Below are positions 2,581-11,667 of a stretch of 11,693 bases of DNA, in pieces. Made by a program: the position numbers and the translations under genes. The notes under the pieces are model-generated. The model was not told the DNA's origin and did not search any database. It worked only from the letters and a program-made list of their open reading frames with translations. How positions within the stretch are numbered: position 1 is the first letter of the stretch; every line of letters starts with the position of its first letter. Source of the DNA: Bdellovibrionales bacterium (GTDB lineage: Bacteria; Bdellovibrionota; Bdellovibrionia; Bdellovibrionales; UBA840); contig JBBKWS010000131.1 of assembly GCA_037969075.1 (NCBI GenBank), positions 1 through 11,693 of the forward strand, in the 5' to 3' direction.

Positions 2581-2928
2581 TGATCTATGGGTATTCGCGC
2601 CCCTTAAAAGGTGAGGAAAGTCCGGACTCTATATGGCAGTGCAAGGGGTAACGCCCCTCCGGCGTGAGCCGAGGAACAGTGGAACAGAGAAAATGTCTAA
2701 GGCATTGAGCCTAATACTGGGAGCGGGAGGTATTAGGGGAGCCAAGGAGTGAAAATAGCTAAACTCTGCACGGAGCAAGATCAAATAGGAAAGCATTAAG
2801 TACGGCCAGTACGAGCTTTCGGGTAAGGTCGCTTGAGGCCATTAGTGATAATGGTCCCAGAGGAATGAATACCGCCTTTATGATTTGGCAAAAGACTAAA
2901 GGTACAGAATCCGGCTTACAGTAGATCA
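2581..2928 (+). ncRNA. rnpB: Ribonuclease P RNA, bacterial type A variant lacking P13/P14
   Basis: GAGGAAAGTCCGG (2613-2625) and ACAGAATCCGGCTTA (2904-2918) form P4. P1 TGATCTAT/GTAGATCA. P2 GGTATTC/GAATACC. P7 GTGCA/TGCAC. P8 AGGGG-TAACG-CCCCT. P9 CGGC-GTGA-GCCG. P15 GATC/GGTC with L15 GGT. P16 GAAAGC/GCTTTC. P17 GTAC/GTAC. P6 TGGC/GCCA. P18 GGCCATTA-GTGA-TAATGGTC. P19 GCCTTTA/TAAAGGT. Confidence 0.97.
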
Positions 2929-2940
2929 AAATGCCATTTT

Positions 2941-2969
2941 TAGGGCCCTTAGGGGCCCTATATTTTTTT
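2941..2969 (+). terminator. Intrinsic terminator of rnpB
   Basis: TAGGGCCC-TTAG-GGGCCCTA followed by TATTTTTTT, 12 nt downstream of P1. Confidence 0.88.
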
Positions 2970-3054
2970 CAAATAACAAACATATTCAAAGTCTATTTTC
3001 CAATAAAAATTAAGAGTGTTAGTTTCCTTCTGAATCAATAAAAAAGGGGAGAGA

Positions 3055-3885
3055 ATGAAGCTACTTTTGGTCATAATATTATTTGGAAGTTTTTCAGCCA
3101 ATGCAAAGGACACACTTTACTGCAAAGTTAATAAAAGAGCTGCGAACGCCTTAGAATCAGTATCGGATGGTTGGAGTTACAATGAGTACTGCCAAGAACC
3201 ACTTTTATCAGGTGACGTTTGTTTTACAGGTTCTAGAACTAAAATTATAGAGCGATTAAATTTAGGGAATCGTGTTGGATCAGATGAGGACTGGATTGAA
3301 GGTGCAAGATACAATGGAAGAAATTTGCAATATACTGTCGTAGACGGCCCCAATGAGTGGGAAGAAAAATATATCATTAAAAAATGTACCCCAGCTTTTT
3401 TTAGAAATTCAGAGCCCGAGCAGCTGCCCTTATTTCCAGGGATAGAAGAAAAAAAAGATCTTGAAGCATTGCAAGCTTACTTAAACACAGAAAATGTTGG
3501 TAATGGTGATGCGGGAATGGTTCCGTATTTAGTTTCATCATTGCAGATTGAAGTTAGCAAAATGTTAGCTAGCCACAGAGAGGCTAGTCGTGATTACCAA
3601 GAAGATAGTGATGCGAATGATGCATATTTTATAGATCATGAAATGCGATCCACAGCATCTAACTTAGTGGATTGGATGGAGTTATCAGAAACTAATCCGG
3701 AAAATGTCACTGAGGATTTCAAACCTTTGCTAGATAGAATGATTGAAAAAGGTGTAGTGCTAAAAATTATTTCTGTTGGCCCGCCTGAATCTTGTTATGA
3801 TCCTACATATTGTAGATGGCAGTTATTTAATATCTTTTTATCAAATGGTGAGCACTATTATATAAATTTTGATTTTACAACCTAA
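3055..3885 (+). CDS. Hypothetical secreted protein, probably two domains, 6 Cys
   Basis: 276 aa. SD GGGGAG at 3046-3051. Signal peptide MKLLLVIILFGSFSANA with an A-x-A cleavage site. The 3' end overlaps the convergent methyltransferase gene by 11 bp. Confidence 0.75.
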   Translation: MKLLLVIILFGSFSANAKDTLYCKVNKRAANALESVSDGWSYNEYCQEPLLSGDVCFTGSRTKIIERLNLGNRVGSDEDWIEGARYNGRNLQYTVVDGPNEWEEKYIIKKCTPAFFRNSEPEQLPLFPGIEEKKDLEALQAYLNTENVGNGDAGMVPYLVSSLQIEVSKMLASHREASRDYQEDSDANDAYFIDHEMRSTASNLVDWMELSETNPENVTEDFKPLLDRMIEKGVVLKIISVGPPESCYDPTYCRWQLFNIFLSNGEHYYINFDFTT

Positions 3886-5262: not shown

Positions 5263-6525
5263 TTGAACATTCTTGAAACTTTAAGACAGCGTGGTTTTAT
5301 CTATCAGACAACTCATGACAAAGAGCTGGAGGAGCATTTAGAAACTTCGCGAGTTTTCTATGTAGGTTTTGATCCAACTGCAGACAGCCTGCATGTTGGT
5401 AGTCTAATTCCATTGATGGCAATGGTACATATGCAAAGAGCGAAGCACATACCGATTGCTATTGTTGGCGGAGGAACTGCAAGAGTCGGTGATCCTTCGG
5501 GGAAAACTGAACTTCGTAAAATGTTAACAGAAGAAGAGTTAGATAATAATGCAAATGGTGTTGCTTCACAAATTAAACGATATCTAAATCTTGATGGTAT
5601 AAATGGAAAGCTTGTTAACAACAAAGATTGGTTGTTGAAATTAGGGTATATTGAATTCTTAAGAGATATAGGTAAGCATTTTTCGATCAATAGAATGTTA
5701 ACAGCAGAAAGTGTGAAGATGCGCTTAGAAAAAGGCTTAAGCTTTATTGAATTTAATTATTCGTTATTACAGGCCTATGATTTTTATACCTTACTTAAGG
5801 ATCACAACTGCACAGTGCAAATGGGTGGACAAGATCAATGGGGCAATATTGTTGCAGGAGACGATCTGTGCCGTAGAATGGGCCTTACGCAAGATACATT
5901 TGGGATTACGTTTCCACTTCTGATGAATGCAAGCGGGACTAAATTTGGTAAATCTCAAGATGGTAATGTGTGGTTAGATATCAATAGGACACCTGCATTA
6001 GAATATTATCAGTTCTTTAGAAATACGGCAGATCAAGATGTTGAAAAGCTATTGAAACTATTTACTTTTTTACCAGTAGATGAAATTGCTACTCTAATAA
6101 AAGAAAACTTAAATCGCGCTAAAGAAATTTTAGCCTTCGAAGCTACAAGCATTACTCACGGCGAGGAAATTGCCGCAGCTGCATACGCCACAGCTTCTAA
6201 TCAATTCGGTTCGGCTGATCCTGATAATAAAATAAAGACATCCTCTAAAATTGTATCTGTAAACATAAAAAATAGCCTTGATGTTCCGACTCTAGAGATT
6301 TCAAAATCAGAAATACAACAAATGAATTGGGCTACTTTGGTTCATAAATCCGAGTTTGCTGTCAGTAAAGGTGAGGCGCGTAGATTGATTCAGGGTAAAG
6401 GCGTTAAGTGGGAAGATAATACGGTTGAAAAAGCTGAAGATTTAATTCCTGCCGCAGCTTATGCAGAGGGCTCATTTTTATTAAAAGTTGGAAAGAAAAA
6501 ATTTAAACGTATACAGGTGAAGTAA
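5263..6525 (+). CDS. tyrS: Tyrosine--tRNA ligase
   Basis: [15 protein letters not shown] (HIGH), [21 protein letters not shown] (KMSKS), C-terminal S4 domain ([14 protein letters not shown]...KVGKKKF). TTG start with SD GAGGT at 5253-5257. Confidence 0.97.
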
Positions 6526-8147
6526 TGGATTCATTAGAAGTAATTACATCAGAGATAGATACTACCTCTTCTGGTTTTAACGCAAACAAAGAGGTTCTGT
6601 TGGCGCTAACAGAACAATTTAAAAAACACATAGAGCAAGTAAAACTGGGCGGGGGAGCAAAGTCTATCGCTCGTCATAAAGAAAAAGGAAAGTTAAGCGC
6701 CAGAGAAAGAATCGAGAAGCTATTAGATGCTGACGCTAGTTTTTTAGAGCTTTCAACTTTAGCAGCAATCGGAATGTATGATGATGGGGCCCCAGGGGCA
6801 GGAGTAATCACAGGAATTGGTAAAATATCAAATCAAGAATGTGTGATCGTTGCCAATGATGCTACAGTAAAAGGCGGGACATATTTTCCGATCACAGTTA
6901 AAAAGCATTTGCGGGCGCAAGAGATAGCATTAGAAAATGGCCTACCATGTATTTATTTAGTGGATAGTGGAGGAGCATTTTTACCTCTACAATCTGAGGT
7001 GTTTCCTGATAGAGATCATTTTGGACGTATTTTTTATAATCAAGCAAGAATGTCAGCTGAAGGAATTCCGCAGATCGCTGTTGTGATGGGTTCTTGCACG
7101 GCGGGGGGGGCTTACGTTCCTGCGATGAGCGATGAGACCGTTATTGTAAAGGGCACTGGGACCATATTTTTAGGCGGGCCACCGCTTGTCAAGGCAGCAA
7201 CTGGAGAAGTTGTGGATGCAGAGTCTTTAGGTGGGGCAGATGTTCATACAAAAATAAGTGGAGTAGCCGATCATTACGCAGAAAATGACGAGCACGCCCT
7301 AGAGATTACAAGAAATATAGTCGCCTTCTTAAATCAAACAAAGAAACAACCTTGTAAGCTAGCAGCAGCAGAAGAGCCGGCGTATCCACAAGAAGAATTG
7401 TATGGAGTGATACCAAAGGATAGTAAGCAATCATTTGATGTAAGAGAAGTGATTGCAAGAGTAGTAGATGGATCTAGATTTCAAGAGTTTAAAAAGAATT
7501 ATGGGACAACTTTGATAACGGGTTTTGCCCATATATATGGTTATCAAGTAGGAATAATTGCAAACAATGGAATTTTATTTAGTGAGAGCTCATTAAAAGG
7601 TGCGCATTTTATCGAGCTTTGCACGCAACGAAATATTCCTTTGGTGTTCTTACAAAACATAACAGGATTCATGATTGGCAAAAAATATGAAAACGAAGGT
7701 ATAGCAAAAAATGGCGCAAAGCTTGTGACGGCAGTAAGTACAACTCATGTACCCAAATTCACAGTTATCATCGGGGGGTCTTATGGAGCGGGTAACTACG
7801 GCATGTGCGGACGTGCTTACCAGCCAAGACAACTTTGGATGTGGCCTAACGCTAAAATTTCTGTAATGGGTGGAGAGCAAGCAGCCAATGTACTACTTAC
7901 TGTAAAAATGGAACAGACGGCCCGCAGGGATGGCAAAGAGATGACTGCAGCTGAGCAAGAAGAGTTTAAAAGACCGATACTTGAAAAATACGAGGCAGAG
8001 AGCTCTTGTTATTATTCATCGGCAAGAGTTTGGGATGATGGAATTATTGACCCAACTGACACTCGTAAAGTAATAGCAATGGGATTAGCCGCTTCATATA
8101 ATAAGCCCTGGGGCGAACCTAAGCCTTTTGGAATATTTAGGATGTAA
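6525..8147 (+). CDS. liuB: 3-methylcrotonyl-CoA carboxylase beta (carboxyltransferase) subunit
   Basis: [71 protein letters not shown] and C-terminal FGIFRM are typical of MCC-beta. Operon context agrees. Confidence 0.95.
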
Positions 8148-8148
8148 A

Positions 8149-8934
8149 ATGATAGAAGTAAAAAAACATGAGCTATACTGGCAAATCACTTTAAATCGTC
8201 CAGAAGTGCATAATGCATTTCACCCAGAGATGATCGAAAAGATTACTGCCACCTATTTAGAGGCTGCGAAAGCAAAAATCAAAATGGTTGTTCTTAACGG
8301 AAATGGTAAGAGTTTTTCTGCGGGTGCAGATTTAAATTGGATGAAATCCATGGCCGATTATTCTGAAAAAGAAAACTACCATGATGCTTTAAAGCTATTT
8401 GATATGTTTTTAGCAATCTATGATTGTTCAGCGGTAACTATTTGTGTGGCGCACGGAAATGTCTTTGGCGGCGGCCTTGGTTTTATTGCTTGTTCAGATG
8501 TTGCTATTGCAGTCAACGACACTAAGTTTTGTTTTAGTGAAGTTAAGTGGGGGCTTTCACCTGCGACCATATCGCCATTTGTCAGAGCTAAAACTTCTGA
8601 AGCACATGCGAAACACTTGATGCTAACAGCCGATATTTTTACGGCAGAAGAGGCTAAACTTGCGGGCTTGGTATACAAGGTAGTGGGTGAAAATGAATTG
8701 GCTCAGACTGTAAAAGACCTAACTAAAACAGTTTTAGAAAATGGAACAGAAGCGCTGTGTGCTACTAAGAAACTATTGAACTTACAGGGGCATCAACCGC
8801 TACGCTGTAGAAAAGAGACGGCAAAATTGATTGCGAAAAGACGAGTAAGCGCAGAAGGGCAGCAAGGCTTAAATTACTTTTTAACTAAAGCAATGCCGGC
8901 GTGGAAAAAAATTCAAGACGGAGTCGATTTATGA
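8149..8934 (+). CDS. liuC: Methylglutaconyl-CoA hydratase (crotonase family)
   Basis: TLNRPEVHNAF, FSAGADLNWM, GGGLGFIACSD, FSEVKWGL. Start moved from TTG 8128 to ATG 8149, 1 nt after the liuB stop, with AGGA upstream. Confidence 0.88.
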   Translation: MIEVKKHELYWQITLNRPEVHNAFHPEMIEKITATYLEAAKAKIKMVVLNGNGKSFSAGADLNWMKSMADYSEKENYHDALKLFDMFLAIYDCSAVTICVAHGNVFGGGLGFIACSDVAIAVNDTKFCFSEVKWGLSPATISPFVRAKTSEAHAKHLMLTADIFTAEEAKLAGLVYKVVGENELAQTVKDLTKTVLENGTEALCATKKLLNLQGHQPLRCRKETAKLIAKRRVSAEGQQGLNYFLTKAMPAWKKIQDGVDL

Positions 8935-10406
8935 AAATAAAAAGACTTGGAATTGCAAACCGTGGAGAAGTGGCGGTTCGGATCATTCAGGCTTGCAAAA
9001 GCTTAGGTATAACTTCGGTATTATTGCATTCAGAAGCGGATGAAAAATCATTAGCCTACCGAATGGCAGATGAAACTATTTGTATTGGACCTGCGGCCAG
9101 AAACGAATCGTATTTAAGTATTGATGCGAATATAAGAGCTGCTAAAGAAAAAAGAGTAGATGCAATACATCCAGGTTTTGGATTTTTATCTGAAAACGCT
9201 GCGTTTGCAGAAAGAGTCACTAAAGAAAAGATGATTTTTGTGGGGCCAAGAGCTGAAACGATCAAACAACTAGGGGATAAGATTTCAGCAAAGGATCTAA
9301 TGAACAAGGCTGGCGTGCCCACAATACCAGGATATCAAGGTGAAAAGAATGACATTGAATCTTTAAAAAAAGAAATAATAAAAATTGGATTTCCTGTTTT
9401 AGTTAAAGCTGCGGCCGGTGGCGGCGGGCGCGGAATGAAAGTTGTTCGAAATAAAGATGAAATTGAAGAAATGGTAGCTTCAGCAAAAAGAGAGGCTATA
9501 GAGGCGTTTGGAGATGATAGAGTTTTTTTAGAAAAGTATTTAGAAAAACCTAAACATATCGAGTTTCAAATATTTGGTGATACTCATGGAAATGTAATAC
9601 ATCTTTTTGAACGAGAATGTTCTGTTCAAAGACGCCATCAAAAAATAGTTGAAGAGGCTCCATCAGTGTCTTTAACAGATGTCCTTAGAAGTAAAATGGC
9701 AGAGGCCGCAGTTACTGCCGCAAGGTCTGCAAACTATGTTGGGGCGGGAACAGTTGAGTTTTTACTAGAGGGCGACAGTTTTTACTTTTTAGAAGTAAAT
9801 ACTAGATTGCAGGTAGAACATCCTGTAACAGAATTAATTACAGGTATTGATTTAGTACAAATGCAGATCAAGATAGCAGAAGGGGAGAAACTCCCTTATA
9901 GCCAAAAACAAGTAGTGTCCCGTGGACATTCTATCGAATGTAGATTGTATGCCGAAGACGCATATCAGGGTGGTATCCCTTCTACGGGCAAGGTCCTATA
10001 TCAAAAATTCCCAGTAGGGCCTAAGAGACGGTTTGATTTTGGACTAGAGGCAGGAGATGAGGTAACACCATTTTATGATTCTATGATTGGTAAATTGATC
10101 GTATATGGTGAATCAAGGGAGAACGCTATCAATGAGATGCTTAAGGTTCTTGATGACACAGTCATATTTGGAATTAAAACTAATATTCCATATTTAAAAA
10201 AGATTTTACAACACGAAGAGTTCATAGCCTCTACTATGACTACAAAATTTATCGAAACGTATTTTGCTGAAGGTATTGAAGCTCCAATCTTAACCGAACA
10301 ACAAGAGAAGCAGCTGCAAATACTTAGTTCACAAATTCAATCTACTTATCAAGGTGAATCATCTTCGCAAAAAGGGCCCTTCTCAGAAGGCTGGAGAAAT
10401 ACATGA
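8931..10406 (+). CDS. liuD: Biotin carboxylase subunit of 3-methylcrotonyl-CoA carboxylase (LiuD N-terminal part, no biotinyl domain)
   Basis: IANRGEVAVR, IHPGFGFLSEN, KAAAGGGGRGM, RECSVQRRHQK, EVNTRLQVEHPVTE. Start moved to ATG 8931 (ATGA overlap with the liuC stop, SD GGAG at 8920-8923). No AMKM motif. Confidence 0.9.
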   Translation: MKIKRLGIANRGEVAVRIIQACKSLGITSVLLHSEADEKSLAYRMADETICIGPAARNESYLSIDANIRAAKEKRVDAIHPGFGFLSENAAFAERVTKEKMIFVGPRAETIKQLGDKISAKDLMNKAGVPTIPGYQGEKNDIESLKKEIIKIGFPVLVKAAAGGGGRGMKVVRNKDEIEEMVASAKREAIEAFGDDRVFLEKYLEKPKHIEFQIFGDTHGNVIHLFERECSVQRRHQKIVEEAPSVSLTDVLRSKMAEAAVTAARSANYVGAGTVEFLLEGDSFYFLEVNTRLQVEHPVTELITGIDLVQMQIKIAEGEKLPYSQKQVVSRGHSIECRLYAEDAYQGGIPSTGKVLYQKFPVGPKRRFDFGLEAGDEVTPFYDSMIGKLIVYGESRENAINEMLKVLDDTVIFGIKTNIPYLKKILQHEEFIASTMTTKFIETYFAEGIEAPILTEQQEKQLQILSSQIQSTYQGESSSQKGPFSEGWRNT

Positions 10407-10771
10407 AGATGCTTGAAATTAGTTGGGGCAGTGAAACAAAAAAAGTAATTGCTATGAAGCAAGGAAGAAAACTCTGGGCCCATATTGATGGTGAAGTAAT
10501 ATGCTATGAGGCAAAGGGTTCATCGGCTAATCAGTCAAAGGCTGCGTTTACCTTTGGCCCATTAAAGTCGCCGATGCCAGGTAAAATCATGAAAGTTAAT
10601 ATAAAAGTCGGAGATGTAATTGAGGCAAAGAAAACTTTAATTGTGCTTGAAGCAATGAAAATGGAATACAGTATAAAAGTTCCTGAATCGTCTAAAGTTA
10701 CAAAAGTTCTTTGTGCAGCTGGTGACCAGGTAAAAGAAGGCCAAGTACTACTAGAAGTGGAGAAGGTATAA
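10403..10771 (+). CDS. Stand-alone biotin carboxyl carrier protein (LiuD C-terminal part)
   Basis: SPMPGKI and LEAMKME (biotinylated Lys86). ATGA overlap with the upstream gene and its own GGAG SD. Confidence 0.92.
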   Translation: MKMLEISWGSETKKVIAMKQGRKLWAHIDGEVICYEAKGSSANQSKAAFTFGPLKSPMPGKIMKVNIKVGDVIEAKKTLIVLEAMKMEYSIKVPESSKVTKVLCAAGDQVKEGQVLLEVEKV

Positions 10772-11667
10772 TGGCTAAACAGATTCGTATCGTTGAAGTT
10801 GGGTTACGTGATGGCCTGCAGAATGAGAAGCAAGAGCTAAGTGTTTCGCAAAAAGTGAAGCTAATAGACAAGCTGGTGCGATCCGGCAGTAGATATATGG
10901 AAGTCGGTGCTTTTGTCTCCTCTAAATGGGTACCTCAAATGGCTGACACAGAGGCTGTTGTTAAAGAGGTTCTTTTAAATAATAATTATAAGACCATAGA
11001 ATTTTCTGCCTTAGTACCAAATGAAGTGGGAATGCAAAAAGCACTTCTATATAAGGTTCCTGAGGTCTCAGTATTTACTGCAGCTTCAGAATCTTTTACC
11101 GAAAAAAACATTAATTGCAGCATAGATGAATCGTTTAAAAGATTTGAGCCAGTTTTAAAGCTTGCCAAAAAAAATAAAATCAAAGTTAGAGGCTATTTAA
11201 GCACAGCGTTTGTTTGTCCCTATGAAGGACTTATAGATCCTAAGAGGACTCTCAAAATTTGCGAAAGACTATTTGAGCTGGGAGTGTACGAGGTATCGGT
11301 TGCAGATACAATTGGCGTGGCTAATCCAAAACAAGTGGAAAGCTTAGTAAAAAAACTAACTACTAAGTTTTCTAAGAAAAAAATCGCTATGCATTTTCAT
11401 GATACTAGAGGTATGGCACTAGCGAATGTACTAAAAAGCTTAGAGCAAGGTATAACTACATTTGACGCCAGTATAGGTGGTTTGGGTGGGTGTCCCTATG
11501 CAGAGGGTGCGGCTGGAAACGTAGCAACTGAAGATTTAGTTAATATGCTACATGAAATGGGATATTCTACTGGTATAGATTTAGAGGATCTGGTGGATAC
11601 GTCAAAGTGGTTACAAAGTATTTTTTCTAGAAGTCTTAATTCGAAGTTATCAAAAATTACACTTTAA
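10771..11667 (+). CDS. liuE: Hydroxymethylglutaryl-CoA lyase
   Basis: EVGLRDGLQNE, HFHDTRG, GGLGGCPYAEGAAGNVATED. TAATG overlap with the BCCP gene. Confidence 0.95.
   Translation: MAKQIRIVEVGLRDGLQNEKQELSVSQKVKLIDKLVRSGSRYMEVGAFVSSKWVPQMADTEAVVKEVLLNNNYKTIEFSALVPNEVGMQKALLYKVPEVSVFTAASESFTEKNINCSIDESFKRFEPVLKLAKKNKIKVRGYLSTAFVCPYEGLIDPKRTLKICERLFELGVYEVSVADTIGVANPKQVESLVKKLTTKFSKKKIAMHFHDTRGMALANVLKSLEQGITTFDASIGGLGGCPYAEGAAGNVATEDLVNMLHEMGYSTGIDLEDLVDTSKWLQSIFSRSLNSKLSKITL

Follow-up and report, generated by a model that had tools for sequence, protein, structure and literature searches.

Textbooks present the bacterial class A RNase P RNA as an RNA enzyme in which the P13/P14 strut holds the substrate-binding domain together. 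In archaea, this strut has been lost, and the loss is thought to be compensated by proteins, including L7Ae bound to a kink-turn in P12. Kinks have already been documented in both types of the enzyme, namely kink-turns in archaeal P12 and pK-turns or kink-turns at P16/17 of bacterial RNase P RNA, the ones at P16-P17 having reportedly been described by Meyer et al. in 2012. In archaea, the kink-turns of P12, helped by L7Ae, make P12.1 fold back on P12 (Wan et al. 2019, PMC6565675), and archaeal L12 has been proposed to take over, via these kink-turns, the role of bacterial L14 on P8/9 (Lai et al. 2017, PMC5499556). Two other precedents are relevant: the RNase P RNA of Deinococcus radiodurans, in which L12 pairs with an extension of P9 and reinforces the S domain (PMC8457005), and riboswitch kink-turns, which mediate tertiary contacts without a protein (McPhee et al. 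2014, PMC4382518).

A bacterial order that includes the culturable model predator Bdellovibrio bacteriovorus displays the same loss of P13/P14 and a kink in the same helix, with no L7Ae-family gene in the genomes searched. The case described here comes from an 11,693-nt stretch of the genome of an uncultured Bdellovibrionales lineage (the window), in which an earlier note, made from the sequence alone, had recognized a kink-turn in the P12 of an RNase P RNA.

The host RNase P RNA and the kink-turn in its P12

The rnpB gene of the window (Table 1) matches the full length of the RF00010 (RNaseP_bact_a) covariance model, positions 1-367, with a score of 209.2 bits (E value of 4e-67) against a gathering score of 100 bits, which places it among the bacterial class A RNase P RNAs. 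The usual hallmark that separates type A from type B, P13/P14, is nevertheless absent from it: in the Rfam alignment, a single nucleotide stands for the 43 model positions of P13/P14, and P12 has an insertion relative to the model. The earlier placement of the motif in the P12 of a bacterial RNase P RNA devoid of P13/P14 is thereby upheld. This is the only rnpB match in the whole 2.5-Mb assembly (90% complete). The search for rnpA in the same genome was positive as well (PF00825, 59.6 bits, G000:C198:36-293); its 116-aa product is of ordinary size and is encoded away from rnpB.

Table 1. Coordinates of rnpB, the elements of its P12, and adjacent features in the window
Feature	Position	Strand	Basis or pairing
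rnpB, RNase P RNA, bacterial class A, without P13/P14	2579..2934	+	RF00010 match
J11/12, conserved region with one tRNA-elbow-binding T-loop	2685..2695	+	P12 alignment
P12 base, 5' strand	2696..2700	+	UCU pairs with GGA 2746-2748; A2699 and A2700 face A2744 and A2745
Kink-turn C helix, bulged strand, -3b to -1b (GGC)	2701..2703	+	Pairs with 2741-2743
Kink-turn bulge L1-L3, 3 nt (AUU)	2704..2706	+	
Kink-turn core G1b, A2b, G3b	2707..2709	+	
NC (distal) helix, 5' strand	2710..2718	+	Pairs with 2729-2737
L12 decaloop GGGAGCGGGA (family consensus GGGAACGGGA)	2719..2728	+	
NC helix, 3' strand	2729..2737	+	Pairing and strand-length counts
Kink-turn core G3n, G2n, A1n	2738..2740	+	
C helix 3' strand GCC, then A2744/A2745, then P12 base GGA	2741..2748	+	
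J12/13 joined straight to the 3' side of P11, GUGAAAAUAGCUAAAC (P13/P14 deletion site)	2749..2764	+	Rfam alignment
Intrinsic-terminator-like hairpin and T-run, 3' of rnpB	2941..2970	+	8 pairs, 6 of them G-C, then TATTTTTTT

The P12 of this RNA spans positions 2696-2748 and contains a sequence-perfect kink-turn, which we take to be almost identical to Kt-7. Its coordinates (2701..2743) proved exact as previously noted, down to the individual pairs, the bulge, the 9-bp stem, and the loop. The core consists of the G2707.A2740, A2708.G2739, and G2709.G2738 pairs, and the distal stem of 9 bp ends in the wobble pair U2718.G2729. Only one G.A/A.G tandem is present and the distal helix is regular up to the loop, so this is not a double kink-turn. 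The minimum free energy fold of positions 2695-2749 has exactly the two flanking helices of the kink-turn around a 6x3 internal loop, but its stability is unexceptional (z = -1.66), so that thermodynamics alone provides little proof. A scan of both strands of the 2.5-Mb genome for generic kink-turn hairpins returned three sites, including the P12 of the window, and the stem-plus-loop combination was found once, so that the module is present in the genome as a single copy.

The proximal part of P12 shows a peculiarity of its own. In the window's genus (the window and its congener L007), positions 2699-2700 and 2744-2745 form a tandem A.A mismatch, whereas 47 of the 50 relatives have two Watson-Crick pairs and a bulged G at the same point. 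An irregularity at a distance of three pairs below the kink-turn is thus a conserved feature that takes different forms.

The genes surrounding rnpB have housekeeping functions; they comprise those for a POT transporter and a methyltransferase, as well as a class I tRNA synthetase gene and a leucine catabolism cluster. At 5263-11667 (+), this class I synthetase, of the Tyr/Trp type, precedes a cluster that resembles one for leucine/isovalerate catabolism, with genes for a carboxyltransferase, an enoyl-CoA hydratase, a biotin carboxylase, a biotin carrier, and an HMG-CoA-lyase-like protein; all of this is ordinary metabolism. The two open reading frames that flank rnpB, at 1418-2536 (+; 372 aa) and 3055-3885 (+; 276 aa), have no Pfam match, and the N termini of both products are hydrophobic and signal-peptide-like. 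They are kept beside rnpB in the same genus only (26% and 69% identity, respectively, in L007), and no neighbor of rnpB is conserved beyond the genus.

Conservation, covariation, and distribution of the P12 module

The P12 alignment comprises 50 segments, 46 from the order and 4 from family f15, that were picked blind to the motif. G1b, A2b, G2n, and A1n of the kink-turn core are each found in all 50 segments, position 3n is G in 49, and the -1b:-1n pair is C:G in 48. Position 3b is U in 31 segments, G in 18, and C in one, and the complete list of 3b:3n combinations consists of U:G (31), G:G (18), and C:C (1). The bulge is 3 nt long in 49 of the 50 segments (AUU in 27, UAU in 14, UUU in 3, and other sequences in the rest), with variable L1 and L2 and with U at L3 in 49. 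These are the sequence features of a simple kink-turn of the Kt-7 type, i.e., a C helix, a 3-nt bulge, and a tandem G.A/A.G that opens the NC helix. Lack of conservation of the tandem and the bulge, which the earlier note had named as grounds for abandoning the idea, is thus contradicted by the relatives (50/50 and 49/50, respectively), although these are not independent of each other, so the counts overstate the number of evolutionary trials.

Both flanking helices vary freely in sequence while retaining their pairing: 94.3% of the cells are paired, and 15 of the 17 pairs change on both sides. None of 500 shuffles reached any of the observed measures, and sliding the partner strand by 1 to 3 columns lowered the pairing to 34 to 58%. 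Covariation is seen in the C helix (G-C, G-U, and A-U) and in the NC helix, where two-sided changes occur at all 9 pairs and 90.8% of the cells are paired. With an invariant core and two covarying helices, the assignment to the standard kink-turn consensus holds, and so does the anticipated covariation of P12 across related rnpB genes. Given its rarity in the genome scan and its conservation with covariation in the relatives, the kink-turn motif in P12 is not a matter of chance; by sequence and comparative criteria, it is real and conserved.

The distal arm is of nearly constant length even though all nine of its distal pairs vary in sequence: the 5' strand, counted from 3b to the closing pair, has 10 nt in 47 of the 50 segments, and the 3' strand has 10 nt in 45. 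The L12 loop is GGGAACGGGA in 44 segments, and the remaining six have single variants of it. The GAAC core of the loop is found in 46 segments, with GAGC and GAAU occurring once each. Alternatively, the loop can be seen as a pair of GGGA repeats or as a GGAA tetraloop, closed by G-C, that is followed by a GGGA bulge. The proximal arm has 8 pairs and one conserved irregularity, the bulged G of most genera or the tandem A.A of the window's genus.

Such regularity bears on the view that the internal loop does not form a kink-turn in three dimensions, or that P12 was extended by neutral, functionless expansion. The unremarkable fold stability and the repeated loss of the module within the order (see below) would agree with it, but four bases that are invariant amid freely varying helices, a constant arm, and a near-invariant loop are unlike neutral sequence, and the 3-nt bulge, the tandem G.A/A.G, the C:G pair at -1, and the G at 3n make up the defining signature of a kink-turn. 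This view is accordingly very improbable.

The distribution of the module was assessed on the rnpB genes of 50 genomes of the order, including that of the window (30 + 20 loci; one further genome had no match), with the presence of P13/P14 scored by eye on sequence segments. All 50 of these RNAs lack P13/P14, and 46 of them carry the P12 module; the order, which is Bdellovibrionales according to the database titles, includes B. bacteriovorus. The other four (L003, L015, L022, and L071) have a short plain P12 hairpin in its place. They belong to families f1 and f7, so that the arm was lost independently at least twice, and can be considered natural deletion mutants for comparison.

In the phylum-wide sample, 142 of the 151 genomes had an rnpB match, and 50 loci from other orders were read. 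Canonical P12-P13-P14 regions were seen in 33 of these, while 13 lacked P13/P14 and had a minimal or different P12; family f15, which lies outside the order, has the module in 4 of 4 RNAs. Altogether, 17 of the 67 P13/P14-less RNAs of the phylum are without the module, so the proposal that it is a necessary companion of P13/P14 loss did not stand. The module appears to be accessory rather than essential, judging from its losses (at least two) within the order and from the related lineages in which a minimal P12 suffices. When the 33 canonical and 17 module-less RNAs were scanned for kink-turns under relaxed criteria, only scattered chance matches of 3 to 4 bp were obtained, none of them in P12, but the scan also missed 2 of 7 true positives and is therefore a poor test.

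A pattern scan of 185,579 species genomes, which required the exact consensus loop, the 3' kink-turn strand, and GUGAAA, returned at least 119 stretches; among the 80 matches listed, 63 were rnpB and 17 were chance matches outside rnpB. The titles of the 63 listed rnpB matches name Bdellovibrio (including B. bacteriovorus), Bdellovibrionales, Pseudobdellovibrionaceae, Bdellovibrionota, and Bacteriovoracaceae, with three vague or odd ones. Within the reach of this pattern, the module is a trait of the phylum; since the exact consensus loop was required, diverged versions elsewhere would be missed.

Two individual sequences deserve mention. The metagenome-assembled L149, titled Bacillota, has a P12 module identical to that of named Bdellovibrio strains (e.g., L156), and the identity extends from 45 nt upstream through approximately 14 nt downstream of the loop; the Bacillota label is probably a binning or labeling error. 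The other is L098 (genome G074, family f17), from another P13/P14-less lineage, a single sequence with a longer P12 that, by eye, resembles a k-junction: its bulged strand reads AGC-UUU-GA-CUU, and the other strand has AAG-GA, one A, the hairpin GAGG UUU CCUC, AA, and GCU. L097, L099, and L101 fit such a reading less simply. Should the k-junction of L098 prove real, the kink-turn may predate the order and may have been elaborated in different ways.

Predicted folding of the P12 arm and candidate contacts of its loop

A kink-turn that fits the L7Ae-binding consensus suggests that a protein of the L7Ae family, similar to YbxF or YlxQ, might be recruited as an additional subunit, as had been proposed for this RNA and as occurs at P12 of archaeal RNase P (PMC5499556, PMC6565675). 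Six-frame searches with PF01248, the family that includes YbxF and YlxQ, found no member in the window's own genome (0/1), in 41 genomes of the order, or in 151 of the phylum (with a completeness of 90% or more for 35 and 123 of them, respectively), whereas the same search detected the positive controls, Bacillus subtilis, Thermotoga maritima, Lactococcus lactis, and four archaea. Recruitment of L7Ae, YbxF, or YlxQ was therefore rejected as the explanation; this part of the original proposal is close to refuted, and its probability is minimal. By the same token, an archaeal-type complex of L7Ae with P12, which requires that a gene of this family be encoded, does not apply to the genomes searched.

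The sequence of the kink-turn points to folding that needs nothing but metal ions. According to the rules worked out in the Lilley laboratory, kink-turns of the metal-ion-foldable class have G at 3n or C at 3b, a 3b:3n pair that is not Watson-Crick, and C:G or A:U at -1b:-1n (PMC4382518, PMC8191799). The 3b:3n and -1b:-1n pairs of the 50 segments fall into this class, with the status of U:G being an interpretation of the rule text. "Watson-Crick pairs plus GU" at 3b:3n are listed as poor folders (PMC4382518); in our reading, this "GU" has G at 3b and U at 3n (the arrangement of U4), which leaves U:G, the combination in 31 of the 50 segments, slightly ambiguous; its placement among the folders follows the statement on the 3n=G column. 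The G:G, U:G, and C:C combinations all specify the N1 conformation (PMC4914095), so the variation at 3b:3n is confined to one geometry, which is what would be expected if the trajectory of the arm matters. On these grounds, the P12 kink-turns are predicted to fold with metal ions alone.

The absence of PF01248 members may still leave room for an unrelated protein that binds the kink-turn or the loop. In such a scenario, the kink-turn, the decaloop, or both would be the site of a non-L7Ae protein, a lineage-specific second subunit or an assembly factor, and P12 would be kinked only when bound. Kink-turns are frequent protein sites, and a bacterial example, in OLE RNA, is recognized by OapC and not by L7Ae (PMC9723947); a near-invariant, purine-rich 10-nt loop is typical of protein sites as well, but equally so of tertiary contacts. 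However, protein-dependent kink-turns, such as those of U4 and box C/D, are biased toward the non-folding class (PMC4382518), and the 3b:3n and -1b:-1n pairs of P12 belong to the self-folding one. Nor does the genome contain another copy of the module that would hint at a shared binder, the genes beside rnpB are shared only within the genus, and RnpA, with its 116 codons, is unexceptional. A protein of this kind is, on balance, unlikely.

The geometry of the arm suggests where its tip might go. With the included angle of 50 degrees of a generic kink-turn (PMC5061560), helix arithmetic for a 12-pair distal arm and an 8-pair proximal arm would set the loop approximately level with the base of P12 and about one helix diameter to the side. 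The corresponding landing area would be the surroundings of the J11/12-J12/13 T-loop module and the site from which P13 and P14 emerge in canonical RNAs.

The explanation that we favor, at somewhat better than even chances, is that the P12 arm, folding back without a protein, braces the specificity domain through RNA alone, with its tip making a sequence-specific tertiary contact. In the proposed mechanism, the kink-turn would fold through metal ions and/or tertiary contacts, with no L7Ae-type protein, and would bend the distal arm (approximately 12 stacked pairs) back beside the base of P12 (a proximal arm of approximately 8 pairs). The decaloop GGGAACGGGA would thus come to lie roughly level with the tRNA-elbow-binding T-loop module of J11/12-J12/13, in the space that P13/P14 hold in ordinary class A RNAs, where its sequence-specific tertiary contact would stabilize the specificity domain. 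The suggestion in the earlier note that P12, folded back by the kink, substitutes for the lost strut agrees with the fixed arm length, the near-invariant loop, and the predicted self-folding, and it parallels the proposal made for archaea (PMC5499556). Some findings count against such a brace. The module is dispensable, being missing in 4 of the 50 RNAs of the order and in 13 P13/P14-less RNAs of other families, and a search by eye for a receptor of L12 gave no conserved single-stranded complement.

That search covered Watson-Crick pseudoknot partners of the UCCC/UCCCG type in the rnpB sequences of the relatives, and the pairing partner that had been looked for did not emerge. The loop varies too little to bring a partner within reach of covariation analysis. 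A comparison of the window, whose loop is GGGAGCGGGA, with L007, which has the consensus GGGAACGGGA, revealed differences in P9 (compensatory), the closing pair of P12, P15 (one base), L18 (GUAA to GUGA), and the P19/P1 region; none of these is an obvious partner of the loop.

A different kind of lead came from the full-length alignment of 49 module-bearing RNAs and the four that have lost the module. Outside P12, the two groups differ at A2692 in J11/12 and at a few positions that are changed in two of the four. A2692 (alignment column 10) is A in 49 of the 50 module-bearing RNAs; of the 17 P13/P14-less RNAs that have no module, 16 carry U, G, or C there and 1 carries A. The position differs even between close relatives, the module-less L015, L022, and L071 on the one hand and L027 on the other. 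A2692 is a possible contact point of L12 or else a phylogenetic coincidence; this lead is a weak one, suggestive but phylogenetically confounded.

The same pattern at A2692 could also speak for a contact with the substrate. The folded-back L12 would then touch, for example, the elbow or the variable region of the tRNA instead of the ribozyme, acting as a lineage-specific recognition element, and the arm arithmetic would place it beside the T-loop module that binds the elbow. The GAAC core of the loop is presumably complementary, with wobble, to the tRNA T-loop sequence GUUC. However, the T-loop bases of a folded tRNA are tied up in tertiary pairs, lineages without the module process their tRNAs with a minimal P12, and RNase P reads the elbow by stacking (PMC6565675). 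A substrate contact is thus rather improbable, more so than a protein site.

A broader version of these ideas would make Bdellovibrionota a new architectural class of bacterial RNase P, in which the P12 arm evolved independently of archaea after the loss of P13/P14 and the decaloop serves as a dock for a non-L7Ae subunit or as a tRNA elbow contact. We regard this version as doubtful.

Comparison with known systems

In the openly accessible literature searched, there was no P12 kink-turn in a bacterial RNase P RNA and no structure of a Bdellovibrio RNase P RNA, although an earlier description may exist in older subscription surveys. The description of this architecture in the earlier note as possibly undescribed can therefore be kept for bacterial P12, although kinks in archaeal P12 and at P16/17 had been known. 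Its characterization as archaea-like is apt as an analogy only, since P12 has a single kink-turn here and not the archaeal double one.

If the RNA-only brace is true, these RNAs would represent a natural experiment in convergent RNA architecture. They would offer a two-component system, consisting of the RNA and RnpA, for testing the contribution of the archaeal fold-back in the absence of five proteins, and the known protein-independent kink-turns would then include one from a ribozyme.

One of the closest counterparts is the archaeal P12 with the kink-turns KT2 and KT3, which likewise belongs to an RNase P RNA without P13/P14 and has a kink that folds distal P12 back, as would be the case here. 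The proposed roles of the archaeal kink are to put L12 in place of the bacterial L14-P8/9 strut and to hold the T-loop module in position (PMC5499556, PMC6565675). The archaeal P12, however, has two kink-turns that share a helix and are bound by L7Ae, and it ends in a tetraloop, whereas the P12 of Bdellovibrionales has a single kink-turn and a conserved 10-nt loop in a phylum where no L7Ae-family gene was found. Partners such as Rpp21 and Rpp29 would not be expected in Bdellovibrionales either. The host RNA of Bdellovibrionales is a bacterial class A ribozyme with RnpA, and, in contrast to the archaeal P12, its kink-turn belongs to a sequence class that is predicted to be protein-independent. 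On the reading favored here, it could be viewed as a bacterial protein-free counterpart of the archaeal P12 fold-back.

Within bacterial RNase P, the pK-turn or kink-turn at P16-P17 provides a parallel, as the kink lets a terminal loop reach its receptor (Daldrop et al. 2013, PMC3672288; P12 is mentioned 0 times in the text of that paper). That kink is part of the C domain, whereas the P12 kink-turn lies in the S domain and is tied to a lineage without P13/P14. The L12-P9c contact of D. radiodurans is similar to the proposed role of the P12 module in being a lineage-specific contact of the P12 tip inside the S domain; it is, however, a pseudoknot formed by Watson-Crick pairing with an extended P9, and the RNA concerned has retained P13/P14, while the P12 module has a kink-turn and no pairing partner that could be found in the relatives' rnpB sequences. 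The SAM-I riboswitch's kink-turn resembles the P12 module in being simple, with G at 3n and C:G at -1b:-1n, and in its metal-ion folding, which is predicted for P12. SAM-I kink-turns have A:G at 3b:3n in 60% of cases (PMC4382518) and belong to a riboswitch, whereas the P12 module has U:G or G:G of the N1 class and belongs to a ribozyme; in both, the kink presumably brings a distal loop into tertiary contact.
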